The position numbers and the translations under genes were made by a program. DNA of 64,000 nucleotides from Pseudomonadota bacterium (GTDB lineage: Bacteria > Pseudomonadota > Alphaproteobacteria > Rickettsiales > RGZB01): contig RGZB01000001.1 in NCBI GenBank assembly GCA_010031735.1, positions 86,411-150,410 of the forward strand, in the 5' to 3' direction. Below are positions 3,355-47,584 of the stretch, piece by piece (the first letter of the stretch is position 1; each line of letters starts with the position of its first letter). The notes below the pieces were generated by a model. The model was not told where the DNA came from. It was given only the letters and a program-made list of their open reading frames with translations, and did not search any database.

Positions 3355-3374
3355 ATTACTACCTCAGAAACACC

Positions 3375-3408
3375 AAACCCGACCGCCCCTCATGGGACGG
3401 CCGGGTTT
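3375..3408. terminator. bidirectional hairpin terminator shared by pyrB (+) and cassette C1 (-)
   Basis: AAACCCGaCCGcCCC-tcat-GGGaCGGcCGGGTTT. On the minus-sense RNA it is followed by GGUGUUUCUGAGG, the conserved cassette tail. Confidence 0.6.
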
Positions 3409-3448
3409 GAAATGTACCAATTACCCCTACACTAACTAACAGGTCTGC

Positions 3449-3703
3449 TCAGCCCATGTTGGCTTGGGTGAGGGTTTCGACGATGAGCCTCATCATGATG
3501 GCGGGAATCGGGGTCTCGCACTGCACAGCCCCCTGCGTCCCGTCGAACTTGCTGACCGGGAACTGCATCTTCTCGCCCTTCTCCATCACCATCGAGCCGA
3601 CCTTGATGTCTTCGAGCGCTTCGATCTCGACTGACCCGGAAACGAGTTGGATCTTGAACGGGAGTGCGACTTCGACATGGATCACGAACGTTTGCGTAGC
3701 CAC
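3449..3703 (-). CDS. hypothetical small protein, GC3-rich cassette C1 (family A, paralog of 11787-12161)
   Basis: 84 aa, GTG start preceded by GAGGG. Nearly all codons end in G/C. N-terminus ..FVIHVEVALPFKIQLVSGSV.. resembles ..IYTIEVELPFDLTVSRSTV.. of C6. Confidence 0.65.
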   Translation of the reverse strand: MATQTFVIHVEVALPFKIQLVSGSVEIEALEDIKVGSMVMEKGEKMQFPVSKFDGTQGAVQCETPIPAIMMRLIVETLTQANMG

Positions 3704-3741
3704 GACAGTACCCTCGGAGTTTGGTCGTGATGCGCGAAGAC

Positions 3742-3764
3742 GAATCCCGCAGGATTGTTCCTTG
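3742..3764 (-). promoter_or_regulatory. conserved leader RNA hairpin (CAAGGAAC-AAUCC-UGCG-GGAUU) in C1 5' leader
   Basis: Same motif in the C6 leader (12210-12234). Two stem positions differ by compensatory changes (A-U/A-U versus G-C/U-A). Confidence 0.45.
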
Positions 3765-3869
3765 TCTTGGCATCACACTTTCGGATGAGTGAATATCCTT
3801 TTCACTCTACGTGCATAGGCATGCATGGTTGGACGCCATGGATACTTTACGCACGAGTTAGTTGTATCC

Positions 3870-3901
3870 ACTATAGCAGAAACAGGTGAATAACTGGTTA
3901 A
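3870..3901 (-). promoter_or_regulatory. putative promoter of C1: TTAACC-N20-TATAGT
   Basis: Gene-sense TTAACCagttattcacctgtttctgcTATAGT, directly abutting the terminator tail of C2. Confidence 0.45.
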
Positions 3902-3914
3902 TACCCCCCTAAAA

Positions 3915-3958
3915 ACACGAAAACCTTCCACCCCAGCTAGGGTGGAAGGTTCGCGTGT
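3915..3958 (-). terminator. intrinsic terminator of cassette C2 (conserved module)
   Basis: Gene-sense ACACGCGAACCTTCCACCC-tagctg-GGGTGGAAGGTTTTCGTGT + TTTTAGGGG. 19-bp stem with 1 mismatch. The stem is nearly identical to 10068-10115. Confidence 0.75.
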
Positions 3959-3988
3959 GTCCCGGTTTACGCTCCGGAACTAATCTCC

Positions 3989-4336
3989 TCAGTCGTCGAA
4001 CGGATCCGCGATGTCGAGGCCCGCACGTGCGGCCTCGTCCTCGAGCAGCATGTCGCCGTAGGCCTCGCCGTAGGGCTTCGGCTCGACCAGCTTGATCTCC
4101 ATGAACGGCACCATCTTCCAGTCCTGAGACGCGTTCTGCCGCATCATGATGTCGTAGGTCCGGTTGTACTCGATCTGGACGGGCTTGCCCTTGGACAGCT
4201 CGAACGGCGTCGCCTCGAGGTCTTCCAGCAGTGAGATGCGTAATGCGACTTGCACTTCGCCCTGCTTGTTTTCTGCCGTGGGGAACTCGCCGACGCTTGC
4301 AACGAACCTAATCCCGAACAGGGTGAACGAAAACAT
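3989..4336 (-). CDS. hypothetical small protein, GC3-rich cassette C2
   Basis: 115 aa, ATG with GGAG upstream, strongly G/C-ending codons, acidic C-terminus ..LDIADPFDD. Confidence 0.7.
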   Translation of the reverse strand: MFSFTLFGIRFVASVGEFPTAENKQGEVQVALRISLLEDLEATPFELSKGKPVQIEYNRTYDIMMRQNASQDWKMVPFMEIKLVEPKPYGEAYGDMLLEDEAARAGLDIADPFDD

Positions 4337-4504
4337 GACCCGAACTCCGAATGTGGGGATTGCAGACGAATCACACCATCCTTGGGGTGATTCGCACTGC
4401 GGGGTGGGGTACTAAGGAACATCCTTGCACCTTACTTGCTTTCCATGTGTGGGGTGATTTTTAAAACCGCACCGCACATTTCCAGACAAGAACCAACTGT
4501 CCCC

Positions 4505-4536
4505 ATGGTATCAAACCCATGTTAACAAAATCTTAA
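4505..4536 (-). promoter_or_regulatory. putative promoter of C2 with perfect TTAA-N7-TTAAC box
   Basis: Gene-sense TTAAgattttgTTAAC (4536->4521). The first half-site TTAAGA lies N20 from TACCAT. Confidence 0.45.
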
Positions 4537-4573
4537 ATTTGTAATTTTTGATGTAGATTTTTAGTTTATACGA

Positions 4574-4608
4574 GAGCCCTCCCCCACCCGACGGGTGGAG
4601 GAAGGCTC
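4574..4608 (-). terminator. intrinsic terminator of cassette C3
   Basis: Gene-sense GAGCCTTCCTCCACCC-gtcg-GGTGGGGGAGGGCTC followed by TCGTATAAAC. Confidence 0.65.
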
Positions 4609-4651
4609 GCGCTTCTGGCTTTACGTTAGGTGCCAGGAACCTCTATCACAC

Positions 4652-4945
4652 TCAGCTCTGGCTGGCGCGCTCCTGCGCGGCGAACTCCGCCGCGTGCTCG
4701 CTGACGCTCTCGACCTCTTCGTCGGCCGGGAGCGGGAAGGCCGGGGCCCACTCTTCCGGGTCCCCGAGCCAGCTGCCACCGGAGTGGCCGTTGTGCTCGT
4801 GGTCCCAGCGGGCCTTCTGGTTGGTGAACTCCGCCTCGAACTTCGGCAGGTCGGCGATCGGGGCCTCGATCTTGTACGGGGCCTTGGCCAACAGCACCCA
4901 CACGTTGACCTTCTCGCCCTTGACCACGATGTGTTGGATCTTCAT
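4652..4945 (-). CDS. hypothetical small protein, GC3-rich cassette C3
   Basis: 97 aa. By hand count 93 of 97 sense codons end in G/C (Lys AAG, Glu GAG). Two other long ORFs over the same DNA are R/G/P-rich shadow frames. Confidence 0.75.
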   Translation of the reverse strand: MKIQHIVVKGEKVNVWVLLAKAPYKIEAPIADLPKFEAEFTNQKARWDHEHNGHSGGSWLGDPEEWAPAFPLPADEEVESVSEHAAEFAAQERASQS

Positions 4946-5136
4946 CGGAACCTGAGCCTCGAACTGGTGTGATGCGCAGCATGACTCCCCCGTTTTACAA
5001 ACACGGTTGGAGTCTTACTGCACGCGGTAGTCACGAAAGCGCCGTTGCTCCCGTGACGTGTACTTTGCCCGACGATCCTCTGCTGCACCGGTGTTGGTTG
5101 TGGTGCTGGCGGAGAATACTGATGTCGGACTAGATC

Positions 5137-5168
5137 AAACTATCTCTAGGATAGCAAATAATGGTTAA
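5137..5168 (-). promoter_or_regulatory. putative promoter of C3: TTAACCAT..-N20-TAGTTT
   Basis: Gene-sense TTAACCATtatttgctatcctagagaTAGTTT. Exact TTAACCAT 8-mer. Confidence 0.45.
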
Positions 5169-5196
5169 TTTTTTATTAGCGTTGCACACTTTTTAT

Positions 5197-5228
5197 TTAA
5201 CCATTTATTAAGCATTTAGACATATAAT
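5197..5228 (+). promoter_or_regulatory. putative promoter of the 515-aa P-loop gene: TTAACCAT..-N20-TATAAT
   Basis: TTAACCatttattaagcatttagacaTATAAT, then a 25-nt leader with TAAGGA before the ATG at 5254. Divergent from the C3 promoter. Confidence 0.55.
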
Positions 5229-5253
5229 AGCGTATTGATAAGTAAGGATTTTC

Positions 5254-6801
5254 ATGCGCCCGATTTACGAGCCATCAACCGACCTACTCTATTCCGGCCA
5301 TTTTGAGCGGGCGGATCTGGTCGCGCTCGGGAATGCGCTTGGGGTCAGCAACATCAAAGTCATCACCCAGGCAACGCTTGAACCGGACCGGGTATTCTAT
5401 CACGCGTGCATCAATCGGGTGCTCATCAACGTCAAACTGAAGCATCTGGATGAAAGCGAACGTTCGGTTGAAATCGCAGATCTTGCAGAGCGCGTTTACC
5501 GTGACAGGCAGCCGCTTTTTTTCTCTGAATTGTTGAAAAGAGATACCGAGTTAAGAACAAAATTGAATGGCATCGATGTGTTCTGTAATACGCTTGATCA
5601 GATGGCGCCCGACCCATGGGATAAAGCTGCGTTCGACCAACTGTGTGGTGCAGAAAAGGTGCCACAGCGCTGGCAACAGAAAGCCATCGAAACCTACCGC
5701 ACCATCCGTGAACGCATCGCGACAGGAGAATATACTCCGCGGGAGGAAGAAGATGCCCTCTCGCTTACCATCTATTGGGCGCAGCGAAACGTTGAATATA
5801 AACACTACAGGACCATCGCGCGTGAAGCGGTGGAATCTTATCTGGAGAAAACCATCGGTAAAGAAGAGCGTCTTGCCGTACAGCCCGCCAAGGGTCGCAT
5901 CACCACCATGGTCATCGGCGGGTATGGCAGCGGCAAAAGCACCATCTCCAACTGGCTACTCGCACAGATGGGAGATGAAGAGCGTCAGAATACAGGCATC
6001 CATGATGCGGATACCGCGAAGATTGCACTTCTGAGAAAAGCCATCCTGGATAGAATATTGCCTCCTGATCATCCGACCACGGGTTTCGCCGTGCAGAACG
6101 AATCCTCCAATATCAATTACGAAATCACGAGAGAGAGGGCATATCTTGCCGAACATGCTGGCTTTGTGCCCAGGGTCATTATCAATAGCCCGATCTTAGG
6201 TACAACCGAAATGAATGAGGCCCTTGCAGGTGGTGGCAAATTGGTGGGACACCATCTCTTCATGACTATCCCGGAGGCGGTTGGCGAATCCAAACTCCGC
6301 GCAGCACGCATCGGACGTATGCCAGAGGAAGCGGATATCCACTGGTCTACCGTCGCTTCAGCGAAAAGTATCCTAGGCCTTACGGATAGCACGTATCGTG
6401 GCAAAGAGATCACCCTGCATCTCTACAACCGTGAACAGCAGAAAGCACCTAAGCATTATGGCGTGATCGATGTCGCAAATGCCGTCTTTTACATCCATGA
6501 CCTGAATGCTTTAGCCAGCACTGCAGAGATGACGGATGAATCCATCTCGCGTCCGGAGGCACTTCATCGTTTCCTTAAAAAATTCAATGACGCAGGTTTC
6601 ACTATCGCCCTTGCCAAGGCAGAGGAACTCGACAATCCCGTCGCTGTAATTAAGGCGGATAAGAAACTTGAAATCGCGAACCGTGCTGACTTTGTTGCTT
6701 ACGGCGATTTGCGCGCTGAAGTGACTAAGCTTTCTGCCCATACACAATTCAGTGATATCGTGCTGAACCAACCGAAGCCGACAGGCGCGATAAGGATGTA
6801 A
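5254..6801 (+). CDS. hypothetical P-loop NTPase/kinase (zeta-toxin-like Walker A)
   Basis: 515 aa. Walker A MVIGGYGSGKST near residue 220. No other family assignment possible by eye. Confidence 0.7.
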   Translation: MRPIYEPSTDLLYSGHFERADLVALGNALGVSNIKVITQATLEPDRVFYHACINRVLINVKLKHLDESERSVEIADLAERVYRDRQPLFFSELLKRDTELRTKLNGIDVFCNTLDQMAPDPWDKAAFDQLCGAEKVPQRWQQKAIETYRTIRERIATGEYTPREEEDALSLTIYWAQRNVEYKHYRTIAREAVESYLEKTIGKEERLAVQPAKGRITTMVIGGYGSGKSTISNWLLAQMGDEERQNTGIHDADTAKIALLRKAILDRILPPDHPTTGFAVQNESSNINYEITRERAYLAEHAGFVPRVIINSPILGTTEMNEALAGGGKLVGHHLFMTIPEAVGESKLRAARIGRMPEEADIHWSTVASAKSILGLTDSTYRGKEITLHLYNREQQKAPKHYGVIDVANAVFYIHDLNALASTAEMTDESISRPEALHRFLKKFNDAGFTIALAKAEELDNPVAVIKADKKLEIANRADFVAYGDLRAEVTKLSAHTQFSDIVLNQPKPTGAIRM

Positions 6802-6803
6802 GT

Positions 6804-6953
6804 ATGAAAACACCCCCTCTCAATGACCAGCTCATGGATACCAAACTGGATATCAAGGATGATGAGTTTGCCCGCATCGCCGAGAAGACCACTGCTGATA
6901 AGGCGAAAATGGAAGCCTTGATGCGGAAGATATCCGAGCAGGATACCAAGTAA
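6804..6953 (+). CDS. hypothetical 49-aa acidic/coiled-coil-like protein, probably co-transcribed with 5254-6801
   Basis: ATG lies 2 nt after the upstream stop, with AAGGA about 10 nt upstream. MKTPPLNDQLMDTKLDIKDDEFARIAEKTTADKAKMEALMRKISEQDTK. Below the ORF-track length cutoff. Confidence 0.4.
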   Translation: MKTPPLNDQLMDTKLDIKDDEFARIAEKTTADKAKMEALMRKISEQDTK

Positions 6954-7054
6954 GGTGCTCGGTTGGCACAAGCCAGCCAATAATCTCCGCTTTTAGGCAA
7001 AAATACTTGATTTTACGCCCTCTGCTGGTTACACCAAGAGTAACCGAGGGGAAC

Positions 7055-8404: not shown

Positions 8405-9517
8405 CTACTCCCCAGGCGTATCAGGGTTATAACCCTTGCTGATGTCGATTTTGTTTACTGCCGCGATTAGTTTTACCACCTGCGAAAAAAATCCATCCCT
8501 CAGAGCTTCACTAAAGCATATATCATTCCATGCAGCTTCCCGGCTTAGTTTTTGTTCCGTTAACGCACGGGCGAGCTCTGGGTTATTGGGGATATACTCA
8601 TCTTCAAACCATTCAACAAGCTTACGAGGAGTTTTATCTCCATCAACCTCAAGTACTTCGAGAATTCCTGACCTAGACGATGCTTCAAGAAAATCTTTCA
8701 ACGTTACATACTTTTTCATAGACCATAGCAGATCTTCACAAATTGAATCCGGTAAATACAGGCTGCTGCCTTCTTCCTGAATACCTGACATAATAGGCTT
8801 TTCTGCTAAAATTTCTCGTAAAGCCCCTGCTGCTTGCTCATTCTCAGGAAGATCGTCTACCCTAGAACGGAAGTCCCACACCAAAAACAAAAAATCATAA
8901 ACACCTTCTATTACCATTTCGGCTGCTTCCTGTGGATTTTGCGGCTCTTTCTCGGCAGCTGCCTTCTTCTGATCAACGGATACATTACCTTCTTTGTATG
9001 ACTCTATGCCCCTCTCACTTTCAGCACTAAACATGTCAAGTGCGGCAGCGAGCCATTCCCGCTTAAACGGCTTTCTCTCGGCAAGAGCGAGAACAAACTC
9101 CATATTATCCTTATGCCTTACCGTGAATTCATCACCTCGTAAAAGACTAATATATAATTCGTTAAGGCTGTGGATGATGATCGCCTGTTGAACCGTTATA
9201 GCATGAACGCTTAAATCAGTATCTTCTTTAGGGGCAAACGCAGCAACTGCGGCATAGATGCGGTCATAGGTGCCTTTGTTAAAATTATCTTCAAATACTC
9301 CTCTATCAATCTCTTCATCCGGCTCCACAAAAGGAGGGATTTTGAGGATCATAATCAAACTACCAGAGTGTATACTCAATTGCCCCATTATATCATCTTC
9401 GATCTGTTCATCGGTCATTTCAGTTTCTGATTTGAGTGCCTCCACTAAAGGCAATTCAAGCAACGCCGCAAGTTGCGCTTCCTTATTAGCCTTATCTCTC
9501 CAATTCGTTCCGCTCAT
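8405..9517 (-). CDS. hypothetical acidic protein (370 aa), lower-GC ORFan
   Basis: Long ORF 8 nt downstream of 9526-10008 on the same strand. Its stop codon abuts the pyrC stop with zero spacer. Confidence 0.65.
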   Translation of the reverse strand: MSGTNWRDKANKEAQLAALLELPLVEALKSETEMTDEQIEDDIMGQLSIHSGSLIMILKIPPFVEPDEEIDRGVFEDNFNKGTYDRIYAAVAAFAPKEDTDLSVHAITVQQAIIIHSLNELYISLLRGDEFTVRHKDNMEFVLALAERKPFKREWLAAALDMFSAESERGIESYKEGNVSVDQKKAAAEKEPQNPQEAAEMVIEGVYDFLFLVWDFRSRVDDLPENEQAAGALREILAEKPIMSGIQEEGSSLYLPDSICEDLLWSMKKYVTLKDFLEASSRSGILEVLEVDGDKTPRKLVEWFEDEYIPNNPELARALTEQKLSREAAWNDICFSEALRDGFFSQVVKLIAAVNKIDISKGYNPDTPGE

Positions 9518-9525
9518 AACGCCTC

Positions 9526-10008
9526 CTATTCCTTACTCTGCGCCACCATCTTCAGGATATATTTTCTAAAATCCGGATCTTCACCGACGAGTAATTTCGG
9601 CAGCGCTTTTCTGAAATCCTCACGCTTCACCCAGAAAATAATGTAGTCTTCCCAGGTGCTCCACAGACGCTTTTGGTGTGGCGGCATCTTCTCTTCATAG
9701 ACAAGGATGTATGCTTGTTCGAATAAGGAAATCAGCAGATCGAAGATGATGAGTTTCCTCTCAATTTGTTCATTCGTCAGCTTTCGCTTCGAACTGTTTT
9801 TTGAAAACAGGCGAAGATCGGAATTCTCAAGAAGGATTTCCTGGAAATCGGAATATTGGTCAGCGAGGCGTTGATACACCTCCTCCTCTTCGTTCTGACG
9901 TTCCTTACGGTAATCGGAAATGAAAATAATGATGGCGAAGGGTAAACCGATCACGGTTACCACATAGCTGAGCAACTCCCACGTCTCTATATCAGTAAAA
10001 TCCATCAT
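9526..10008 (-). CDS. hypothetical membrane-anchored protein (160 aa)
   Basis: N-terminal TM helix LLSYVVTVIGLPFAIIIFI. AT-rich codon usage. The -10-like TAGTAT lies 6 nt from the ATG (leaderless geometry). Confidence 0.65.
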   Translation of the reverse strand: MMDFTDIETWELLSYVVTVIGLPFAIIIFISDYRKERQNEEEEVYQRLADQYSDFQEILLENSDLRLFSKNSSKRKLTNEQIERKLIIFDLLISLFEQAYILVYEEKMPPHQKRLWSTWEDYIIFWVKREDFRKALPKLLVGEDPDFRKYILKMVAQSKE

Positions 10009-10014
10009 GCTCAG

Positions 10015-10046
10015 ATACTAAGTGAAAATGGTGAAGAAAAGGTTAA
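10015..10046 (-). promoter_or_regulatory. putative promoter of 160-aa/370-aa operon: TTAACC-N20-TAGTAT
   Basis: Gene-sense TTAACCttttcttcaccattttcactTAGTATctgagcATG. Aligns with the C1 promoter (shared TTAACC..TTCACC..TTTC). Confidence 0.5.
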
Positions 10047-10067
10047 TGCCCTGCTTTATACCCTAAA

Positions 10068-10115
10068 ACACGAAAACCTTCCACCGCCCCGAAGGGTAGT
10101 GGAAGGTTCGCGTGT
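10068..10115 (-). terminator. intrinsic terminator of cassette C4 (conserved module)
   Basis: Gene-sense ACACGCGAACCTTCCAC-tacccttcggggcg-GTGGAAGGTTTTCGTGT + TTTAGGGTAT. Same stem as 3915-3958 but a different loop. Confidence 0.75.
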
Positions 10116-10144
10116 GCCCTGACTTACGATGCCAGGGCTAGGTA

Positions 10145-10711
10145 CTACGGCTTCGGCAACTCGAAGCCGAACTCGTCGTCCTCATCGGTCGGAGGGGCGG
10201 CGGGCGGCGGCGGCGGCGGCAATTCAAACACCACCTCCTGCTCGCCTGGCCAGTCTTTCAACTCGAACCAGCCCTCGTCGTCCTCCTGCGGCGGCACCGC
10301 CTTTGCCACCTCACCCAACCCGGAAAGCTTACCGAACTCGGTGAGGGCTTTGGAGATGTCCTCGCCCACGGCCGCCAACGCAATGGCAGTTGGCGGCAGC
10401 TCCCAGCAATCGTTGTCATCCACGACGACTGGCCCGGTGACCGGCGGACCGATCACCAAGTGCTCACCCGTGGGCAGCCCGCTCCCGGGGAACACCGAGT
10501 TCAGGATATTCCGGGCGCGGCGCGTAGCGCGCAGGTGACGCACCACCTCCGTCGCCTCGAACTCCTCGCGGGTGAAGGGCGTCAACTTCACGCCGACCGC
10601 CGTGAGGATGGCCTTCGCGGTGGCCCCGTTCATGTCACCGTAGTTTTTCGTGGCGCCGTTCTTGGACGGCTTGGTGAACACGAGCCCGGCGGTCAGGATG
10701 CGCTTCTGCAT
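10145..10711 (-). CDS. hypothetical protein, GC3-rich cassette C4 (family B, paralog of 11059-11487)
   Basis: 188 aa from the ATG at 10711 (GAGGT upstream). The ORF-track start at 10870 runs into the AT-richer leader. KP..K..TKNYG..G motif is shared with C5. Pro/Asp/Glu-rich C-terminus. Confidence 0.65.
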   Translation of the reverse strand: MQKRILTAGLVFTKPSKNGATKNYGDMNGATAKAILTAVGVKLTPFTREEFEATEVVRHLRATRRARNILNSVFPGSGLPTGEHLVIGPPVTGPVVVDDNDCWELPPTAIALAAVGEDISKALTEFGKLSGLGEVAKAVPPQEDDEGWFELKDWPGEQEVVFELPPPPPPAAPPTDEDDEFGFELPKP

Positions 10712-10939
10712 GGGACTAGTACCTCGCCATTTCTCCCATCCCCTGTTTTTAATTGTTAGGGGGACGCGGATAGTGGCACATGTAGGGATTGGTGGAGGAA
10801 ATTTGTGAAACCCTTTCCACTTAGGGTTATGCAAAACTGTAGGCTCGAACCGTAGCAAAACCAAAAACAATGCCCACAGTCAAACACCGAACCAAACTTA
10901 CATAACACCAACTTAACATCCCCAGTATGACTGAACGAT

Positions 10940-10972
10940 ATTACAAAAATATTACCCCTGACCCATGGTTAA
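10940..10972 (-). promoter_or_regulatory. putative promoter of C4: TTAACCAT..-N21-TGTAAT
   Basis: Gene-sense TTAACCATgggtcaggggtaatattttTGTAAT. Exact TTAACCAT 8-mer immediately after the C5 terminator tail. Confidence 0.4.
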
Positions 10973-10988
10973 TAGCGCCTATAAACAC

Positions 10989-11022
10989 GAAACCCCGCCC
11001 CCACTAAAGGGGACAGGGTCTC
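10989..11022 (-). terminator. intrinsic terminator of cassette C5
   Basis: Gene-sense GAGACCCTGTCCCC-tttagt-GGGGGCGGGGTTTC + GTGTTTATAGG (G-U pairs valid only in the minus-sense RNA). Confidence 0.7.
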
Positions 11023-11058
11023 ATGCGCCTGACTCACGCCAGGTCTTTAGGTATCAGG

Positions 11059-11487
11059 TCACTGCGGCGTCTCTACCGGGTAGCCCCCGAAGTTGTCGGT
11101 TTTCGTGACCCCGCCCTTCTCCTTAGGCGGCGCTTCGCCCAGCTCCTTCAGCAGATCGAACGGCTCGTCTTCCGGGGTCAGCTTCACCGCCTCACCCAGC
11201 CCATCGATCTCCGGAACAGCAGGCAGGAACTCCAGCACCGTCGTCCCGCCCTCGTTGCTACCCTGCGGCGCATCGTAGGGCGGCTCCATCGGCCACTCGA
11301 ACACCTCGTCGTTCCAGTCGTGCATGTCGAGCGGCGGGCGCTTGTACGGCCACAGCCCGGCCTTCTTCAGCGCCTGCTGCGCCTTGAACCCGCTCACCGG
11401 CCCGTAGTTCTTCGTCCAGCTCTTGCGCCCCGGCTTGTAGTAGCTGTCCGGGTGCTTCACCGACGTCAACAAAAGAGACGCGCGCAT
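11059..11487 (-). CDS. hypothetical protein, GC3-rich cassette C5 (family B)
   Basis: 142 aa from the ATG at 11487 (MRASLLLTSVKHPDSYYKPGRKSWTKNYGPVSG..). Start chosen by alignment with C4. G/C-ending codons. Confidence 0.65.
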   Translation of the reverse strand: MRASLLLTSVKHPDSYYKPGRKSWTKNYGPVSGFKAQQALKKAGLWPYKRPPLDMHDWNDEVFEWPMEPPYDAPQGSNEGGTTVLEFLPAVPEIDGLGEAVKLTPEDEPFDLLKELGEAPPKEKGGVTKTDNFGGYPVETPQ

Positions 11488-11668
11488 AACCCAATACCTC
11501 ACCACAACTTCCACCATCCTAATTTTTAGGCGGGAGCAGTGGCACACAAGCTGGTGAAGTAATTATTATGACCCCTCTTCACCAAATGGGTCCTTCGACA
11601 ACCGCGATTACGTTAGTACGTAGCCACGGGTTATATTCCATCAAAAGACAGCCAACGAAAGAGCCACC

Positions 11669-11700
11669 AGTATATCGCTGGAATATTGCAGTTTGGTTAC
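11669..11700 (-). promoter_or_regulatory. putative promoter of C5: GTAACC-N20-TATACT
   Basis: Gene-sense GTAACCaaactgcaatattccagcgaTATACT. Confidence 0.4.
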
Positions 11701-11728
11701 GTCTTAAAAAGCTAATAAACAGCTATAA

Positions 11729-11770
11729 AACACAAGACCCCCGCCGCAGATGCGACGAGGGTCTTGTGTT
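11729..11770 (-). terminator. intrinsic terminator of cassette C6
   Basis: Gene-sense AACACAAGACCCTCG-tcgcatctgc-GGCGGGGGTCTTGTGTT + TTATAGC. Confidence 0.7.
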
Positions 11771-11786
11771 GTTAATTGTGCTTACT

Positions 11787-12161
11787 CTACTCGCCAGAGC
11801 CCCCTTGCGCCGGGGGGTCGCCCTTGTAGGCGTCGTCGTGAACGTCCGTCGGCCACGGCGGCATACCGTTCATCCCGCCGCACAGATTCGTCAACACTTT
11901 CGGCATCACGCTCTTCGCCGCCGCCTTCACGATCTTGGCCGCGATGATCGTGCTGCCCGCGCCGTCCCCGACCACTTCGATCGAGATCTTCCCGTCCAGC
12001 ACCTGCGCGAGGCTCACTTCCGCCGACTGACCCTTTTTGAGCGGGTGGCACTTGCCGCCGCCCAGCACGTTCAGAGGCACGTGCGCACAGATGGTGACGG
12101 TGCTGCGCGACACCGTGAGATCGAACGGCAGTTCGACCTCAATCGTGTAAATGGTTCCCAT
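11787..12161 (-). CDS. hypothetical small protein, GC3-rich cassette C6 (family A)
   Basis: 124 aa. Strong SD AGGAGGG 6 nt before the ATG. G/C-ending codons. N-terminus similar to C1. Confidence 0.75.
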   Translation of the reverse strand: MGTIYTIEVELPFDLTVSRSTVTICAHVPLNVLGGGKCHPLKKGQSAEVSLAQVLDGKISIEVVGDGAGSTIIAAKIVKAAAKSVMPKVLTNLCGGMNGMPPWPTDVHDDAYKGDPPAQGGSGE

Positions 12162-12209
12162 ATTCGCTCCCTCCTAAAGAAGCGTAGTGGGTTCCTGATG
12201 ACGACAGCC

Positions 12210-12234
12210 GGTTCCCGCAGGAACGTTCCTTGGC
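12210..12234 (-). promoter_or_regulatory. conserved leader RNA hairpin (CAAGGAAC-GUUCC-UGCG-GGAAC) in C6 5' leader
   Basis: Counterpart of 3742-3764, with compensatory stem changes. Confidence 0.45.
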
Positions 12235-12454
12235 TTTGTCATCGTAATTCGTGGGGTAAGGAATCCATTACCTTACCTGCTGCCTAACACCGATGAGTTA
12301 CATCGGGGTCCAAAACAGCAAGACAAACCATAGGCAGGATAAAGGTAAATTATGACGGAGATATGACGCACCACTGTGAAAAGCCGAAAGTATGGCATAA
12401 AATAGCCATACTTGGCAGTCCATCTTATTGCCATTACCGCTATATTTCAGTTAC

Positions 12455-12487
12455 TAAGTATTACACCATCGTTAACGGGTCGTTAAC
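12455..12487 (-). promoter_or_regulatory. putative promoter of C6 with perfect TTAA-N7-TTAAC box
   Basis: GTTAACgggtcGTTAAC reads as TTAA-N7-TTAAC on both strands (12472-12487). The gene-sense upstream TTAACG lies N20 from TACTTA. Confidence 0.45.
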
Positions 12488-12497
12488 TCATCTGTAA

Positions 12498-12517
12498 CAT
12501 GTTCCACGTGGAACATG
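12498..12517. repeat. perfect 20-bp palindrome CATGTTCCACGTGGAACATG
   Basis: Read directly. Lies between the C7 terminator and the C6 TTAAC box. Confidence 0.9.
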
Positions 12518-12521
12518 GCAG

Positions 12522-12537
12522 GATACGCTAGCGTATC
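12522..12537. repeat. perfect 16-bp palindrome GATACGCTAGCGTATC
   Basis: Read directly. 4 nt from the 20-bp palindrome, with imperfect GGCA/TGCC extension. Confidence 0.9.
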
Positions 12538-12569
12538 TGCCGTAATAGACATTCTATTCGCCCCAAAAA

Positions 12570-12609
12570 GCAAAAGGGAGAGAGGTTTGCAGTCCCTCTC
12601 TCCCTTTGC
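12570..12609 (-). terminator. intrinsic terminator of cassette C7
   Basis: Gene-sense GCAAAGGGAGAGAGG-gactgcaaa-CCTCTCTCCCTTTTGC + TTTTTGGGG. Confidence 0.7.
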
Positions 12610-12654
12610 CGCCCCGTATAATAGATAATAAAATGGGGCTTCATTCTTCCATGA

Positions 12655-12954
12655 TCAGCCGACGGTGTCCCCGTCGTTCGGCCACTGGTAGTCGGCGTTC
12701 CCGCTCACCCAGTCGATCACCGCCGACGCGCCCACGCCCATGTCCTCGTTCTCGAACTCCTTGTCCTCGGCCATCGCCCGCGCGGCCTCGTGCCCGATGG
12801 CCGCGTACTTGGCCTGCAGGGCGAGGTCGGCACCGTCCACGGCCTTGTCGTCCGGGTCGTCCTTGATCTTGGTCACGGTCTTGGTGGCCGGCTGGACCTC
12901 GAAGAAATCGTCCGCGCCGCCGTCGTCGTCGTTCCGCCGATTCCGAGCGCTCAT
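12655..12954 (-). CDS. hypothetical acidic small protein, GC3-rich cassette C7
   Basis: 99 aa from the ATG at 12954 (GGAG 9 nt upstream). The ORF-track TTG at 12990 is also possible. G/C-ending codons. Confidence 0.6.
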   Translation of the reverse strand: MSARNRRNDDDGGADDFFEVQPATKTVTKIKDDPDDKAVDGADLALQAKYAAIGHEAARAMAEDKEFENEDMGVGASAVIDWVSGNADYQWPNDGDTVG

Positions 12955-13138
12955 GGCTGCTTTCTCCGCTTTCGGTAATCCCTTACGCAACTTGGGATGT
13001 CAACCGAAGCACGTGTGTGGTGAGGGTCTAGAACTCGATCTTCGAACTCTGCTATCTACCCTTCTCACCTTAGGGTCATGTATCAGTCCTCGGTTGCGAC
13101 ACGAGAGACTGGTTATATGCACCAAGAAATACCCCTTT

Positions 13139-13170
13139 AATATGCCCGAATACTGTTACAAATATGTTAA
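13139..13170 (-). promoter_or_regulatory. putative promoter of C7: TTAACA-N20-CATATT
   Basis: Gene-sense TTAAcatatttGTAACagtattcgggCATATT (TTAA-N7-gTAAC, one mismatch to the full box). Confidence 0.4.
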
Positions 13171-13272
13171 AATCAGTCGATTAGGGGCTAAAATACTGAA
13201 AGTTGCGTTAATCACTGGAAATCCACCAAAAATTTGCTATGGTACGCACGACTCACGATACAGGTTTATGCC

Positions 13273-42800: not shown

Positions 42801-44399
42801 ATGCTGAAACTATTGCGTCATGAGCCTCGTTTATTGCTCTCCTGTATTTGTTCGCTACTCATCGTAGCAGCGTATTTCTTTCTGATACCCTGGACTCCTG
42901 CAGAAGATGCATTGATACTTTTTCAATACAGTGAGCATTTGGCTAACTTAGGCCGGATTGTATACAATATAACCGATCCCGCACCGGTCGAAGGTGCAAC
43001 GGATTTTCTCTGGATGCTCTCCCTCAGCTTACTCTACCGACTCGGTATCGATACGTTCGTAGCAGCAAAATGCCTTTCTGCATTGAGCCTGGCAGGCATT
43101 GTTGTCTTGTTGACAAAATTTGCCAGCACACCCAAAACGAAGCCGGCATCTTTATATTTGTTTTTTACCTGTATCATGTTGCTTCAGGTACCTGTGATAG
43201 CGGCAAGTACCGGTTTTTCGGTATGTACATTCGGTTTCTGTTTGCTGCTGACATTATGGTTTGCACGGCAAAAGCGTTTTTCCCCGATGATTCTGGCGGG
43301 GCTCATCACCTGTCTTATACGTCCGGATGGACTGCTCGTCATCGCACCTTTGGTGATAGGGTATTGTATCCGTTACAGGCACATGCTCACACGCAATGAC
43401 GTGTTCCTGCTGACGCTGGTGTTCATTGGCGGCATCGGCTATTTTCTGTGGCGTTGGCATTACTTCGGGCATTTCCTGCCACTGCCGTTCTATGTAAAAT
43501 CCGATGCTCCACGCCTATTCGGATTTATCAATAGAACTTCCTATTCCGCACTTGGCATCCTGCTCTTTCTGCTATCACCTGTCTTACTCTTCTATATCTG
43601 GCGACTGAAAAAGGAATACGATGCTTGTTGGTATTATGAAGCTCCCCTATTCATAGTACCTATTCTGTTTTATGGTGCTATGGAGCTTCAGCAGAATATC
43701 GCGTTGCGCTTTTTCTACCCTATCATACTCTGTCTTTTCGCATTGGCTGCTGCACATACACAGAAATATGTAAGGCAGTTGTTACTCGCATGTATTCTCT
43801 GTTGTGTAATACAATTCCCTTACTATACCAAAAGTCTTGAGCAAGTAACCAAGCCTCTCACCTCGCATCAAATAGGCCGGGCACTCGGCAGTTTAGAACA
43901 TAAAGGTGTACTACTCACAAGCGAGGCAGGTGGACTTTCCTATTATTCTGGCTGGCAACTTATAGATACATACGGGCTCAACACCCCCTCGATTGCTACA
44001 GGGGGTCTTACCCCAGATTTTATCCGGCAATCAAAGGCCGATCTTATCATCATAAGGGACTATCCTACCCCCCCGCATTTCAGGATGGACCGTTGGATCG
44101 GCATGCTGTCAACCATACACAAGGGCGTGGATTCCTCTAAGTATACACTCCTTTCCCTTCCACCAAGCGCGAGGTTTGGGCTCGTCTTACAAAACACCTC
44201 TTTCAGGGAATTCATCACCTCCACTCTCACTTTGGTAGGTGTACCACAGCATTTTATGAATTTTCTGTTTAGTTACCCCGGCGGCGAGGTCTTATTGGTA
44301 TGGGTGCGCAAAGATTCGCCGTATTATTCGCAACTCGAGCCGTTGATGATAGCAGAAGGTGCAACCCCTGTAATAAGACCCGAAATCTATAATAAATAA
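42801..44399 (+). CDS. hypothetical polytopic membrane protein (possibly ArnT/PMT-like glycosyltransferase fold)
   Basis: 532 aa with at least 10 hydrophobic segments and AT-richer codon usage. Family assignment is a guess. Confidence 0.6.
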   Translation: MLKLLRHEPRLLLSCICSLLIVAAYFFLIPWTPAEDALILFQYSEHLANLGRIVYNITDPAPVEGATDFLWMLSLSLLYRLGIDTFVAAKCLSALSLAGIVVLLTKFASTPKTKPASLYLFFTCIMLLQVPVIAASTGFSVCTFGFCLLLTLWFARQKRFSPMILAGLITCLIRPDGLLVIAPLVIGYCIRYRHMLTRNDVFLLTLVFIGGIGYFLWRWHYFGHFLPLPFYVKSDAPRLFGFINRTSYSALGILLFLLSPVLLFYIWRLKKEYDACWYYEAPLFIVPILFYGAMELQQNIALRFFYPIILCLFALAAAHTQKYVRQLLLACILCCVIQFPYYTKSLEQVTKPLTSHQIGRALGSLEHKGVLLTSEAGGLSYYSGWQLIDTYGLNTPSIATGGLTPDFIRQSKADLIIIRDYPTPPHFRMDRWIGMLSTIHKGVDSSKYTLLSLPPSARFGLVLQNTSFREFITSTLTLVGVPQHFMNFLFSYPGGEVLLVWVRKDSPYYSQLEPLMIAEGATPVIRPEIYNK

Positions 44400-44418
44400 G
44401 CCATGAAAGGCCTCGATA

Positions 44419-44450
44419 TTAACGAGCCATTAACCATTCTTCTTTATACT
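44419..44450 (+). promoter_or_regulatory. putative promoter of the 424-aa gene with perfect TTAA-N7-TTAAC(CAT) box
   Basis: TTAAcgagccaTTAACCAT. The upstream TTAACG lies N20 from TATACT. The -10 ends 9 nt before the ATG at 44460 (near-leaderless). Confidence 0.5.
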
Positions 44451-44459
44451 TGAGAGGAT

Positions 44460-45734
44460 ATGTTATCGCAGGACCCCAGAATCGTTGCTGAACTCAAATT
44501 GCACCAAGCGCATTCCCATGCGCTCGATGAACTTGCCAACCATAGTCAGGATAGAGATTTGAGTCATGGCAAGGTCGAGCCGATTCTATTCATGCTGTAT
44601 GAGCGCAATCAGGATGGTGAACCCGTTTACGAGAATCCACGTGCCATCACTGCGTTTTCTGAACGCGTATTCGTGCCGGTGGAACGCATCCCTTCTTTCA
44701 TGAAGATATCGGAAATGAACCGCGCACTGAAAAGTAGCGCCAAAGGGTCGCTGCCGCTTCTTTCACAAACCATAGATCTGATGCATGCGGATGGCGCGCG
44801 CAATATGGGCATGAAACTCGGCGGGATATTCTTGCCGCTCATCAATGAGGTGATCGGCCGCGACTTGATGCAAAGCCTTACCTTCCGCCGCAATACAGAT
44901 CGCACCATCATGCTTCAGGATGATCATCTGCTGACCGATAAAGAAATCGACGCACTGCGGGATGCCCGTCCGACTGCACTCGATATCACCGATGTCAGGG
45001 ACAAGACCTACAAACTACAGATAGATAACACGCACAAGCTCGGTGCGAAGGGGCATGGCCCCCTCGTCACGGCCGCCATGCTTTTCGACGCGGCACGTAT
45101 GTATCTCGGCCGCCCCAAAAGCTCGCAAGATAAAATACAAGAATATGTGGGCGTCAAGCTGGTAACGCAGAAAGCATTACTCGATCTACTCGATTACATG
45201 GGTTCAGCAATCGAGCGCTCGCCGGAAACAAAAGGCCTATCGCTTGAGGATTTCAGGTTAGCGCTTCCGCCTGCCATACTGCAATCGCTGAAGAAAGCTG
45301 AGCATGATGTACGCCGCCTGGATACAGGACTGCGGATCCATTACCCGGAAAGTACGCTATGCTTAGACAAGACCATGGAGTTCGGCAGGTTTGCAAAAGA
45401 ACCTTTTATCCCACAGACCGTGGAAGACATCGCTTTGATCGTTGCCGCCTCACGGAGTATCTTCCGCTATAGCCATCCTGCACGTACTGAGGATGACGTG
45501 CTGGAATTAGCCAATCGCGTCTCTTATGCCGGCAGTGTTACCGCTGCCGCAAAACTACTCGCAAGTGAGGATTGGTTCAGGGATTATCTGTCGCATCGTG
45601 CCCGTACAGCAGATACCGATATGGTAAGGGGCGCAGCGCTTGCGTACACTATCATCGACGGTATCGGTAAGCAGCCTGAACGTTTTAGCGAGCGTCCGCG
45701 TGAACCTTGGAAAACGGATGGTTTACCGGGCTAG
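44460..45734 (+). CDS. hypothetical protein (424 aa)
   Basis: Long ORF with no recognisable motifs. Its 3' end overlaps the convergent J-domain gene by 4 nt. Confidence 0.65.
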   Translation: MLSQDPRIVAELKLHQAHSHALDELANHSQDRDLSHGKVEPILFMLYERNQDGEPVYENPRAITAFSERVFVPVERIPSFMKISEMNRALKSSAKGSLPLLSQTIDLMHADGARNMGMKLGGIFLPLINEVIGRDLMQSLTFRRNTDRTIMLQDDHLLTDKEIDALRDARPTALDITDVRDKTYKLQIDNTHKLGAKGHGPLVTAAMLFDAARMYLGRPKSSQDKIQEYVGVKLVTQKALLDLLDYMGSAIERSPETKGLSLEDFRLALPPAILQSLKKAEHDVRRLDTGLRIHYPESTLCLDKTMEFGRFAKEPFIPQTVEDIALIVAASRSIFRYSHPARTEDDVLELANRVSYAGSVTAAAKLLASEDWFRDYLSHRARTADTDMVRGAALAYTIIDGIGKQPERFSERPREPWKTDGLPG

Positions 45735-46528
45735 CTCCCTTGCTCTGCCATCAGTTTGTTGAGCGCAATCATACTTTTCTTCAGCACGATCTCTCGTTCG
45801 GTTTTTTCCTTGATCACCTGCACCAAATCGATGCCGCGTCTGGCAGCGCCTTTCACCCGGCGCATGAGATGGAACTCGCTGGAAGCCTTCAAGAGACCAA
45901 TCTTTTCGGCGAACACTTCCTTATCGGCTTTGATGAGAGCAAGTTCGCGCTCTAGGCGTTCGAGTTTTTCTACGGGGTCTTCGCTGTAATCACCATCGAA
46001 TGCCACTTCTAAGCGCACCATCTTCTCTAGGTTACATTGCTGGTACGCCTCATGTACCATGGTGAACACTTTCGCGGCTGCATCACCATACTCCGATGTA
46101 TCCGGGTGGAATTGCTTCGCGAGTTTTTTATATACCCGCCTTGTTTCCTGCTTCTTCAGTTGCTCGATCACCTGCAGGTAATAGTCATCGTGCTGGGCGA
46201 GGTAGTATTCCGTCGCACCGACAGCAGCCAGCTCATTATGTTGTGATTGTGTGAGCGCTTTATCGAGTTCGGCAAGCTCATCGAACAACGTACCGACCCG
46301 CAGATAATATTCCTTCAGGAACTGGTTCAGTTCTTTTTGCAGGAATTCCTGCTCAGCCTGAAACAGCCGATGTTGGTAGATTTCCTTGCTGAGCTGCGAT
46401 TCCAGAAGCCGCGTGTGGTACGCTATCTCAGGCTGAATGCCGGAAATCGTCTGCTGGAAATTCACGCGCCACATCCTATTAGTAGTTGCTTCAATACAAG
46501 CATCTACCACATACAGTAGGTAAGTCAA
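45731..46528 (-). CDS. J-domain (DnaJ-like) protein
   Basis: RRVYKKLAKQFHPDTSEYGDAAAKVFTMVHEAYQ contains the HPD tripeptide in J-domain context. Coiled-coil-like flanks. Confidence 0.75.
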   Translation of the reverse strand: MTYLLYVVDACIEATTNRMWRVNFQQTISGIQPEIAYHTRLLESQLSKEIYQHRLFQAEQEFLQKELNQFLKEYYLRVGTLFDELAELDKALTQSQHNELAAVGATEYYLAQHDDYYLQVIEQLKKQETRRVYKKLAKQFHPDTSEYGDAAAKVFTMVHEAYQQCNLEKMVRLEVAFDGDYSEDPVEKLERLERELALIKADKEVFAEKIGLLKASSEFHLMRRVKGAARRGIDLVQVIKEKTEREIVLKKSMIALNKLMAEQGS

Positions 46529-46540
46529 AGTGATTTTATA

Positions 46541-47575
46541 TCAGCCGAAGGTCGTAGGCATCGATGCAAAGCCAGGCTCTTTGGACATGGCCGCGAGCTT
46601 CTCTCGGAAGTCTGCGTCATCGCCCAGTGCTATTTTGTAAGAAAGGGCGCATGCTAACAGTTCATCGACACTGCTGAACACCAATTGGCCGTTCTTGTTT
46701 GCTTTTGGATCAGGATTACTATCCTGACGGTATTTTGTATTTTTTACCGAATCTGCCCACTCTGCAAGTTCATCGGTAAATCCTTCGCGGATAAGTCCAC
46801 GACGAATCGCTTCTGGACTCAGGAAATCCGCCACCTCAAGGTGTGGAAAATATACGTTATAGATAGTTTTCACCAGATTGCCCGCATCTGTCTCCTGATA
46901 GATTGCAGAGTTCTTATCACCCAGTCGTAACAGGAATTCCTGTTCAGCCGCACGAATGACCATATGAAGAAGAATATTTCCCCAATCTTCTCCATATATA
47001 TCCTCTAGAATGTCTTTGATGAATCGGTTGTCACCCGCCACTTTAAATTCACCCCGAATGGAGGCAGCTATAGAACGACTGCGCTTCGTCTCTTCTTCTT
47101 CGATCGTGAGTGCAGAGAGTGTAAAGACGTTCTGCGTATGTAATTTACATCCATGGAACCGCTCTGCTGTTGCGATCTTCCGTGCGGCATAGACGAATTG
47201 GTTGAAGAGTGCGGCCGCTTCGTCGTCCACTTCTTTTTCATCGATAATGGGGGCTTCTTCAGTGCCCCCAGGTTTAGCTCGAAGCGAACGTTTCGCTTCC
47301 TCTAATTTCTTGTGTCTCAAATATTCCTGGAATCTCTCGTATACGATGGTCTCTTCCGCCAGTGCGGCATACATCCGCACGATATCACAGAAGGTATGTC
47401 CACTCACACGCTTGGATTTAAGATCATCACCATACATCTCTTTCGATTCCCGGAGCACATCCTCCGGAAGACGTTCGAGCGCATTCGCTATCAGTCTGTC
47501 GTCATCCGTCATGAAGCGGATATTCACAAAATTCTTGAGTAGATGGGCGGCGGCTGCTGCTGCAAGAATTGCCAT
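46541..47575 (-). CDS. hypothetical protein (344 aa), paralog of 47585-48502
   Basis: Shared N-terminal block ..YGDDLK..V..HTF.D.VRMYA.L.. with the upstream gene. Confidence 0.65.
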   Translation of the reverse strand: MAILAAAAAAHLLKNFVNIRFMTDDDRLIANALERLPEDVLRESKEMYGDDLKSKRVSGHTFCDIVRMYAALAEETIVYERFQEYLRHKKLEEAKRSLRAKPGGTEEAPIIDEKEVDDEAAALFNQFVYAARKIATAERFHGCKLHTQNVFTLSALTIEEEETKRSRSIAASIRGEFKVAGDNRFIKDILEDIYGEDWGNILLHMVIRAAEQEFLLRLGDKNSAIYQETDAGNLVKTIYNVYFPHLEVADFLSPEAIRRGLIREGFTDELAEWADSVKNTKYRQDSNPDPKANKNGQLVFSSVDELLACALSYKIALGDDADFREKLAAMSKEPGFASMPTTFG

Positions 47576-47584
47576 ATTGTGCCC

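Follow-up and report, generated by a model that had tools for sequence, protein, structure and literature searches.

Tandem hairpins in the leaders of two orphan genes of an uncultured alphaproteobacterium: a probable lineage-specific RNA control element

Among the described systems closest to the element reported here, the stem-loop in the 5' untranslated region (UTR) of Caulobacter flagellin mRNA, from a gene of the CtrA cascade under post-transcriptional control, is bound by FlbT, and Shine-Dalgarno (SD)-like stabiliser or standby elements are known from cryIIIA of Bacillus thuringiensis (STAB-SD) and from tisB (standby site). A third comparison is offered by CsrA, which recognises GGA in hairpin loops and for which systematic evolution of ligands by exponential enrichment (SELEX) gave the consensus RUACARGGAUGU, with ACA and GGA conserved (PMC4347634). 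Within Pseudomonadota, CsrA is uncommon outside Gammaproteobacteria (PMC13443453). We analysed a 64,000-nucleotide stretch of DNA (the window: positions 86,411 to 150,410 of contig RGZB01000001.1, GenBank assembly GCA_010031735.1), whose NusA puts the organism within Alphaproteobacteria with nearest relatives at 72-76% identity, and in it the leaders of two orphan genes, C1 and C6. The two leaders clearly have the same architecture, a tandem of hairpins HP1 and HP2, and this tandem is probably a small RNA element with a control function, specific to the lineage.

The element is most easily recognised by a 20-nt core, CAAGGAACNNTCCTGCGGGA, which occurs exactly in both leaders, on the minus strand, and confirms the shared leader motif of the preliminary description of this DNA. 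There are no other matches in the 64 kb even when three mismatches are allowed, the chance expectation is 0.05, and none of 100 shuffles gave two matches. The core is identical at 18 of 18 positions, and the remaining leader and the proteins have diverged almost past recognition. It reaches from 61 nt (5' end) to about 40 nt (3' end) upstream of the start codon in C1 and from 71 to about 50 nt in C6, so that the distance of 45-55 nt given earlier is only approximate. The first description is right about the 5-bp stem, its UGCG loop and the two compensatory pairs (AAUCC/GGAUU versus GUUCC/GGAAC). This stem (P3) tops a larger hairpin of 47-50 nt, HP2, that consists of three stacked helices (P1 to P3). 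Folded alone, HP2 reaches -19.4 kcal/mol in C1 (z -2.46, 56-nt fold) and -19.0 kcal/mol in C6 (z -2.25). Between the two copies P3 shows two double-sided pair changes (A-U to G-C and A-U to U-A), P2 shows one (A-U to C-G) together with the loss of its outermost pair, and in P1 one further A-U pair has come from insertions that match on the two strands. The parts left unchanged are the unpaired AAGGAAC, the single C opposite to it and the cUGCGg loop.

Overall, 13 of the 14 comparable pairs are kept in the face of 12 substitutions in 46 aligned columns, and three pairs are altered on both sides. When neutral substitution was simulated, at least 13 of 14 pairs kept and at least three double-sided changes were seen together in 0.05% of trials with any column free to change, and in 0.12% with the 18 invariant core columns fixed. 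Sliding the partner strand by -3 to +2 positions reduced pairing from 96% to 21-54% and covariation to zero; a shift of +3 left 36% paired with one covarying pair and a score of 0.27 versus 0.43. RNAalifold, applied to the last ~115 nt of both leaders, returned P2 and P3 as the sole consensus structure. A covariance model of HP2 (R1) scores C6 at 68.3 bits and C1 at 64.1 bits, with the next best place in the window at 13.5 bits.

The second hairpin, HP1, lies just upstream of HP2 in both leaders and is included in the minimum free energy (MFE) folds of C1. Six of its seven pairs are changed on both sides between C1 and C6, the loop retains A(A/U)GGAU, and the distance from the HP1 GGA to the HP2 GGA is 37 nt in either gene. 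When the 60 nt that precede HP2 were dinucleotide-shuffled, a GGA-loop hairpin of at least 7 bp appeared at the HP1 position 4 times in 20000 for C1 (2e-4) and 89 times in 20000 for C6 (4.5e-3), figures that are generous because the criterion was set post hoc, after the hairpins had been seen. The MAFFT alignment is out of structural register for HP1 and for the P1 indel, and these parts were judged by script and by eye. Downstream of HP2, at 23-35 nt, comes the Shine-Dalgarno sequence, which is predicted to be base-paired partly in C1 and strongly in C6. In other assemblies of the species the leaders are identical (contigs of 0.6-4.5 kb), and the sole single-nucleotide polymorphism among the C1 leaders of five assemblies (C/A, window 3783) falls in the unpaired linker between HP1 and HP2.

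From the covariation in a single stem it had been proposed that the leader holds a selected RNA structure, such as a protein-binding site, a processing site or a translational control element. The covariation stands and has become stronger, as it now extends over three helices and HP1 and is rare in the simulation, although only two copies carry it. We consider it rather probable that the structure is real and selected for base pairing. The same pattern could be the residual similarity of diverged duplicates with no function, in which compensation would be due to chance or to templated strand-switch mutation in quasi-palindromes. We regard this as unlikely, with the following in its favour: there are only two copies, the pairing is perfectly Watson-Crick without any G-U, as DNA-templated correction predicts, and the cassette region is rich in other palindromes and long hairpin terminators. 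What speaks against it is the fully identical core amid near-unrecognisable leaders and proteins, the 0.05-0.12% of the neutral simulation, and HP1, which would need about six separate corrections while the GGAU loop and the 10-11 nt linker persist.

One way to strengthen the case would have been further copies of the family for a covariance analysis, as had been suggested, but none turned up in the window, in GTDB genomes, in viral contigs or among the metagenome matches listed. The C1 and C6 leaders are the only two copies found, they are paralogous and their covariation events are few, which makes an R-scape-type or phylogenetically controlled statistic impossible. No Rfam 15 family reaches its gathering threshold anywhere in the window, and up to an E-value of 10 none overlaps 3727-3807 or 12197-12277. 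The exact 18-base core has 13 matches in GTDB genomes, versus ~17 estimated by chance, and none of them has the flanking helices; 11 matches in the viral contigs scanned are likewise unstructured. Among the at least 120 matches to a 17-base core listed from metagenome contigs, not one stands in a leader together with the flanking helices. A human-gut terminator, AAAAAGGAACCUUCCUGCGGGAACUUUUUC, which is unrelated to the leader, dominates those listed (L019, L020, L021 and about 60 other loci), and the best non-terminator match among them (L004, 35 bits) lies inside an open reading frame (ORF) of a Phycisphaeraceae metagenome-assembled genome (MAG).

These searches also bear on whether the hairpins could be a dispersed extragenic palindrome, of the kind of repetitive extragenic palindromic (REP) sequences or miniature inverted-repeat transposable elements (MITEs), that sits in the two leaders by chance with only incidental effects on the genes. 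A short imperfect palindrome with covarying stems is what REP families look like, and two copies in 64 kb could mean many genome-wide. However, the two copies have the same orientation, a similar distance to the homologous N-terminal block (51 versus 54 nt) and the same HP1, which argues that they were duplicated with the gene and not separately inserted. Additionally, model R1 finds nothing further in the window or in syntenic relatives: no third copy stands in the intergenic regions of the window, where the next score is the 13.5 bits mentioned above, and there is none in the syntenic relative or the other loci examined. We regard a dispersed palindrome as very improbable indeed.

Since every pair is Watson-Crick, pairing alone fixes neither the strand nor whether RNA or DNA is concerned. 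In both copies the loop reads C-UGCG-G on the minus (sense) strand and C-CGCA-G on the plus strand, so that a UNCG-class tetraloop exists on the sense strand only. Stems that drift and stay paired, loops and geometry that stay fixed, a sense-only UNCG loop and the lack of a U-run after the hairpins together fit a selected RNA structure that presents an unpaired GGA. We infer that the module is transcribed within the mRNA and that it is the RNA, rather than the DNA, that folds.

A DNA-level signal would have to be either a promoter or an operator at which a dimeric regulator binds the palindrome TCC-N4-GGA. Sigma-54 promoters have the consensus TGGCAC-N5-TTGC, with GG and GC exactly 10 nt apart, and ECF (extracytoplasmic function) or EcfG promoters have GGAAC and CGTT or CGTC with 16-17 nt between them. 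The invariant GGAAC equals the ECF -35 core, and GGAAC-N4-CTGC resembles the sigma-54 -24/-12 pattern. In addition, a second GTTCC-N4-GGAAC palindrome stands beside the CtrA box of the C6 leader, TTCC-N4-GGAA occurs four times in the window versus 1.1 expected, and a DNA palindrome is compatible with the absence of G-U pairs. Both promoter types were rejected on their spacing: GG and GC are 9 nt apart in both copies (GG-AACNNTCCT-GC), and GGAAC is followed after 14 nt by a would-be -10 element that differs between the genes (CGTC in C1, CGGC in C6). For an operator, conserved half-sites would be expected, not covariation in P2 and outer P3, an insertion in P1 and swapped HP1 stems, and the C1 leader is without a second ATCC-N4-GGAT. 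A DNA-level signal is therefore very unlikely in our view.

Four further candidates were tried and rejected on sequence. HP2 is followed by GACCAAACUCC in C1 and AGGAACCCACU in C6 and is absent from the terminator scan; without a U-run the hairpins are not terminators or attenuators. A kink-turn has a 3-nt bulge, tandem sheared G-A pairs and GA on the short strand beside the C-helix, and here P3 and P2 are separated on the short strand by one C alone (UUC-GUCUU in C1, ACC-GGCU in C6), with no GA. The attC sites of integrons lie 3' of the cassette ORF with R'' RYYYAAC and R' GTTRRRY boxes; AAGGAAC/GTTCCTT does not fit these, and the element lies 5' of the ORF in only two of seven small cassettes. 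An upstream ORF was discarded, as no start codon follows AAGGAAC.

If the structure is read as RNA, both hairpins display GGA in the manner described for CsrA sites, unpaired within a hairpin loop: apically in HP1 (AAGGAUA in C1, UAAUGGAUU in C6) and internally in HP2 (AAGGAAC). Compared with RUACARGGAUGU, the C1 HP2 site AGACAAGGAACA agrees at 8 of 12 positions and has both ACA and GGA, the C6 site AGCCAAGGAACG has CCA in place of ACA, and the HP1 loops have GGAU and no ACA. The C6 Shine-Dalgarno hairpin has UAGGAGGGA across its loop and stem. For C6 the prediction gives P3 a pairing probability of 0.97 and leaves AAGGAAC unpaired at 0.8-1.0. SD-like complementarity in the two leaders is limited to 5 nt (AAGGA).

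GGA motifs were also observed in the leaders of other small genes nearby. GGAU lies in hairpin loops of the C2 (CCCAAGGAUGG) and C5 (UUAGGAUGG) leaders. The C2 leader has two CAAGGAUG motifs 43 nt apart (window 4377-4427, minus strand), its GUGCAAGGAUGU agrees with the consensus from CsrA SELEX in 11 of the 12 positions, and its CCCAAGGAUGG caps a 9-bp hairpin as the apical loop. The 3' arm of this hairpin has GAUUCGUCU in common with the C1 HP2.

Our tentative interpretation, to which we give slightly less than an even chance, is a homologous structured 5'-UTR module that displays GGA for control of translation or mRNA stability. The module would be the tandem of HP1 and HP2, the latter with a stable UNCG-class cap and an invariant 7-nt purine bulge, AAGGAAC, opposite a single C. 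The helices would keep a Shine-Dalgarno-like GGA single-stranded at a fixed geometry and so form a docking platform for a trans-acting reader, which would set translation initiation and the lifetime of the monocistronic cassette transcripts. The likeliest reader would be a protein that binds GGA loops, either a Csr/Rsm-type repressor or a functional analogue. Alternatively the 30S subunit could be the reader, in a standby or STAB-SD-like role that aids initiation at a sequestered SD, which is attractive because the SD of C6 is sequestered. That the leader acts post-transcriptionally through some reader of the exposed GGA is a nearly balanced proposition, and that this reader is a true CsrA is improbable.

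There are several points that weigh against this interpretation. The whole case is carried by only two, paralogous copies. In a 190 nt context the pair probability of the C1 HP2 is only 0.3-0.4, as AGGA/UCCU pairing competes, and with long context its AAGGAAC is unpaired with a probability of only 0.14-0.6. Not one of 46 base pairs over all helices is G-U, which is mildly unexpected for RNA helices. HP2 has its GGA in an internal instead of an apical loop, and the SD of C1, GAGGG, is without GGA. CAAGGA and AAGGAAC are not enriched window-wide, and a sigma-70-like promoter looked for on the minus strand was not found. Finally, no csrA or hfq was found in the 64-kb window (tblastn, queried with CsrA of E. 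coli and of B. subtilis), and the host belongs to Alphaproteobacteria, where CsrA is uncommon (PMC13443453). Because of this scarcity, the lack of csrA in the window and the internal position of the HP2 GGA, we commit ourselves only to a docking platform for a GGA reader.

A simpler role for the same RNA would be processing or stability alone, with HP2 as an entry site for RNase III or RNase E or as a 5' stabiliser and no sequence-specific reader of GGA. Phage T7-type RNase III sites are stacked helices with asymmetric internal loops, which HP2 resembles, and the monocistronic layout, very strong terminators and extreme third-codon-position GC content (GC3) hint at highly expressed, stability-optimised mRNAs. 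Such a role leaves the invariance of AAGGAAC, of the opposing C and of the HP1 GGAU unexplained while the stems drift. Additionally, a 5' stabiliser has to be located at the extreme 5' end, but the boxes that probably mark the promoters stand 110-230 nt before HP2. We therefore think it quite improbable as the full account. The coordinates of the features that enter the GGA docking interpretation, and those of the surrounding cassettes, are collected in Table 1.

Table 1. Positions of the leader hairpins, genes and CtrA-type boxes, in window coordinates
Feature	Position	Strand	Description
HP2, C1 leader	3727..3776	-	GUGAUGC-C-AAGAC-[AAGGAAC]-AAUCC-UGCG-GGAUU-C-GUCUU-CGC-GCAUCAC; P1 7 bp, P2 5 bp, P3 5 bp; loop cUGCGg
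HP2, C6 leader	12197..12243	-	GAUGAC-AA-AGCC-[AAGGAAC]-GUUCC-UGCG-GGAAC-C-GGCU-GUC-GUCAUC; P1 6 bp, P2 4 bp, P3 5 bp
Invariant core, C1	3745..3764	-	CAAGGAAC-AA-TCCTGCGGGA: unpaired AAGGAAC, top of P3, loop
Invariant core, C6	12213..12232	-	CAAGGAAC-GT-TCCTGCGGGA
HP1, C1 leader	3787..3807	-	GAGUGAA[AAGGAUA]UUCACUC; 7-bp stem, GGA in apical loop, 10 nt upstream of HP2
HP1, C6 leader	12255..12277	-	GGUAAGG-UAAUGGAUU-CCUUACC; 7-bp stem, GGA in apical loop, 11 nt upstream of HP2
Shine-Dalgarno region, C1	3710..3720	-	ACUCCGAGGGU; MFE fold; weak 4-bp hairpin, predicted to include the SD GAGGG
Shine-Dalgarno hairpin, C6	12165..12184	-	CGCUUCUU-UAGG-AGGGAGCG; 8-bp stem containing the SD
C1 ORF	3449..3703	-	84 aa; start codon GTG, not ATG; orphan; GC3 0.82
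C6 ORF	11787..12161	-	124 aa; orphan; GC3 0.86
CtrA-like box, C1 leader	3886..3901	-	TTAACCAGTTATTCAC; about 110 nt upstream of HP2; TATAGT 10 nt further on
Perfect CtrA-type box, C6 leader	12471..12486	-	TTAACGACCCGTTAAC; about 230 nt upstream of HP2
Seven small cassette ORFs	3449-3703, 3989-4336, 4652-4945, 10145-10711, 11059-11487, 11787-12161, ~12655-12955	-	orphans
CtrA-type boxes in the cassette area	3886-3901, 4521-4536, 5164-5212, 10031-10046, 10965-10972, 12471-12486, 13155-13170		
CtrA-type boxes elsewhere	20443, 44419, 48579, 62726		

The kinship of the two genes is more apparent in their DNA than in their proteins. The C1 and C6 proteins are exact copies of the deposited MAG hypothetical proteins EB060_00435 and EB060_00480, encoded on a 161.5-kb contig. 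Their N-termini can be aligned (VEVALPFKIQLVSGSVEI vs IEVELPFDLTVSRSTVTI; VEVALPF... vs IEVELPF...), so the resemblance behind the EV.LPF pattern reported earlier is present, although the pattern as it was written needs a shift of one residue in C1. That the proteins are paralogous is not established by protein similarity alone, which is not significant (BLASTP E=0.015 as a single comparison; p ~0.06 in a Smith-Waterman shuffle test), and C1 is even slightly closer to its neighbour C2 than to C6. Common descent of the 5' parts is better shown by the collinear DNA: the alignment runs from HP2 into the EV.LPF codons free of large gaps, with 51 versus 54 nt from the end of HP2 to the EV.LPF block.

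Beyond each other, the two proteins have little to be compared with. A word-indexed search of an index of 5.8 billion proteins returned only the query for either of them, with zero homologs. An exhaustive HMMER search with C1 gave only beta-propeller repeat proteins, through a single blade-like stretch; residues 22-60 resemble one blade of SBBP/PQQ_2-type repeats (F.V.KFDGT.GAV) with a pairwise E-value of 8e-6, the database E-value of 9e-11 being inflated by six repeats. This stretch is not common to C6 or C2, and Pfam gives C1 only sub-threshold matches (E about 0.1). Single-sequence AlphaFold models were too poor for a comparison of folds: the C1 model is all-beta with a predicted local distance difference test (pLDDT) score of 59.7, that of C6 is unusable (pLDDT 37.7), and Foldseek found no match with E < 0.3 in the PDB. 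PHROGs and PDB sequence searches with the cassette proteins were empty, and the small cassette proteins have no Pfam family at or near threshold.

C1 and C6 are two of seven small cassettes, and comparison with a relative (L151, NusA 75% identical) shows how these are placed. It has the same backbone, AhpC-pyrB-pyrC-TolC-...-folP-tadA-mlaC-mlaA-metF-rimP-nusA, with gene-free gaps of 31 nt between pyrB and pyrC (1197-1229) and 140 nt between pyrC and tolC (2566-2706). In the window the same gaps hold orphan genes and measure 3.6 kb (3355-7006) and 4.8 kb (8405-13233). As the syntenic relative is without any cassette, the cassettes are lineage-specific insertions in a conserved backbone. Every cassette is a separate unit that ends in a long hairpin terminator, and the seven small ORFs have a GC3 of 0.82-0.95 versus 0.57-0.69 in housekeeping genes, with leaders of only about 45% GC.

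C4 and C5 are clear paralogs with KP..TKNYG and DW..E.VFE.P in common (BLASTP E=1e-5; 0/500 shuffles), and several cassette proteins have acidic C-terminal tails with DPF, EFGFEL or EPFDLL motifs. The 3'-UTR/terminator modules of C2, C4 and C5 (3912-3988, 10065-10144 and about 10982-11058, minus strand) are near-identical though the ORFs are unrelated; each is a small hairpin, a terminator of 14-17 bp (ACACGCGAACCUUCCACC...GGUGGAAGGUUUUCGUGU) and then a TATTAACC box. Judged by their sequences, the cassettes look modular. Larger Pfam-less orphan ORFs are found at 5254-6801 (+), 8405-9517 (-) and 42801-48502, one of them with a Walker-A-like GGYGSGKST, and their GC3 is ordinary or low (0.39-0.56), which sets them apart as a class from the small cassettes. 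The protein encoded at 9526-10008 has a sub-threshold match to DUF6249 (18 bits versus a cut-off of 33).

In either leader the tandem is preceded by a CtrA-like box and followed by the start codon. With the CtrA consensus as quoted in PMC3692519, the window contains 29 instances of TTAA-N7-TTAAC when up to one mismatch is tolerated, versus 8.8 expected, a count that no shuffle reached, and the half-site TTAACCAT occurs six times versus 1.4 expected. The boxes are thus enriched about three- to four-fold, and they cluster in cassette leaders, often right after the upstream terminator. In C1 the box and the TATAGT hexamer probably form the promoter region, and their geometry is repeated upstream of the gene at 9526-10008. 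Directly upstream of the C6 box is a perfect 18-bp palindrome, ATGTTCCACGTGGAACAT (window 12499-12516), in which the GTTCC-N4-GGAAC of the C6 HP2 recurs and which could therefore be an operator. The distribution of the boxes suggests that the inserted genes are linked to cell-cycle control. As boxes stand upstream of both tandems, HP1 and HP2 would lie in a probable 5' UTR if the boxes mark promoters.

A more far-reaching possibility, which we consider distinctly unlikely, is that a circuit private to this lineage governs recently inserted, moron-like orphan cassettes after transcription and recognises their RNA by HP1 and HP2, maybe with a GGA-binding protein other than CsrA as the reader. 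Cassettes of CtrA-box promoter, GGA leader, small and extremely GC3-rich ORF and modular 3'-UTR/terminator may then have filled the intergenic gaps of the backbone, and this would amount to a chromosomal cassette system not described before, which brings along its own control by RNA in cis. The more restrained docking interpretation would already have consequences if true. It would add an unlisted cis-regulatory RNA motif confined to one uncultured alphaproteobacterial lineage and placed on homolog-less genes, it would give a handle on how new orphan genes are wired into host control through CtrA-type boxes and a GGA leader, and it would point to a reader of GGA loops in a class where CsrA is uncommon. 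With two copies in one uncultured species its reach is limited, and it is a well-formed hypothesis rather than a discovery.

Comparison with the known systems helps to place both the leader and its surroundings. Target leaders of CsrA/RsmA, such as E. coli glgC and Pseudomonas hcnA, present several GGA motifs in 5'-UTR hairpin loops, spaced by tens of nucleotides and with one of them at the SD. Our leaders resemble them in the apical-loop GGA of HP1 with its A(N)GGA context, in the second exposed GGA 37 nt away, in the third GGA in the SD-hairpin loop of C6 and in the ACAAGGA site of C1, which has ACA and GGA (PMC4347634). Our sites, which are predicted ones, differ from them in the internal GGA of HP2, the CCA of C6, the SD of C1 without GGA, the alphaproteobacterial host and a window without csrA. 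The STAB-SD and standby sites share with our leaders an unpaired SD-like AAGGA that precedes the true, structured SD by tens of nucleotides and has no start codon after it; they are simple single-stranded sites from other phyla, without a covarying multi-helix hairpin. The flagellin leader of Caulobacter offers the same alphaproteobacterial, CtrA-linked promoter context, and there the translation of a small, highly expressed gene is controlled by a protein that binds a stem-loop in the leader; but there is no sequence or Rfam similarity, and neither C1 nor C6 is a flagellin.

Taken as complete units, the cassettes have their closest analogue in the phage moron, a unit of promoter, ORF and terminator between conserved genes. 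Like morons, the cassettes are self-contained (box, leader, ORF and strong terminator), have a codon composition unlike that of their neighbours and sit between conserved syntenic genes. Unlike morons, they are found in a bacterial chromosome between pyrB, pyrC and tolC and not in a prophage, with no match to PHROGs or viral contigs. Seen against these systems, the hairpin leader is an unlisted member of a familiar class, the structured mRNA leaders, and the lineage-specific cassette system that surrounds it may be the more unusual of the two.

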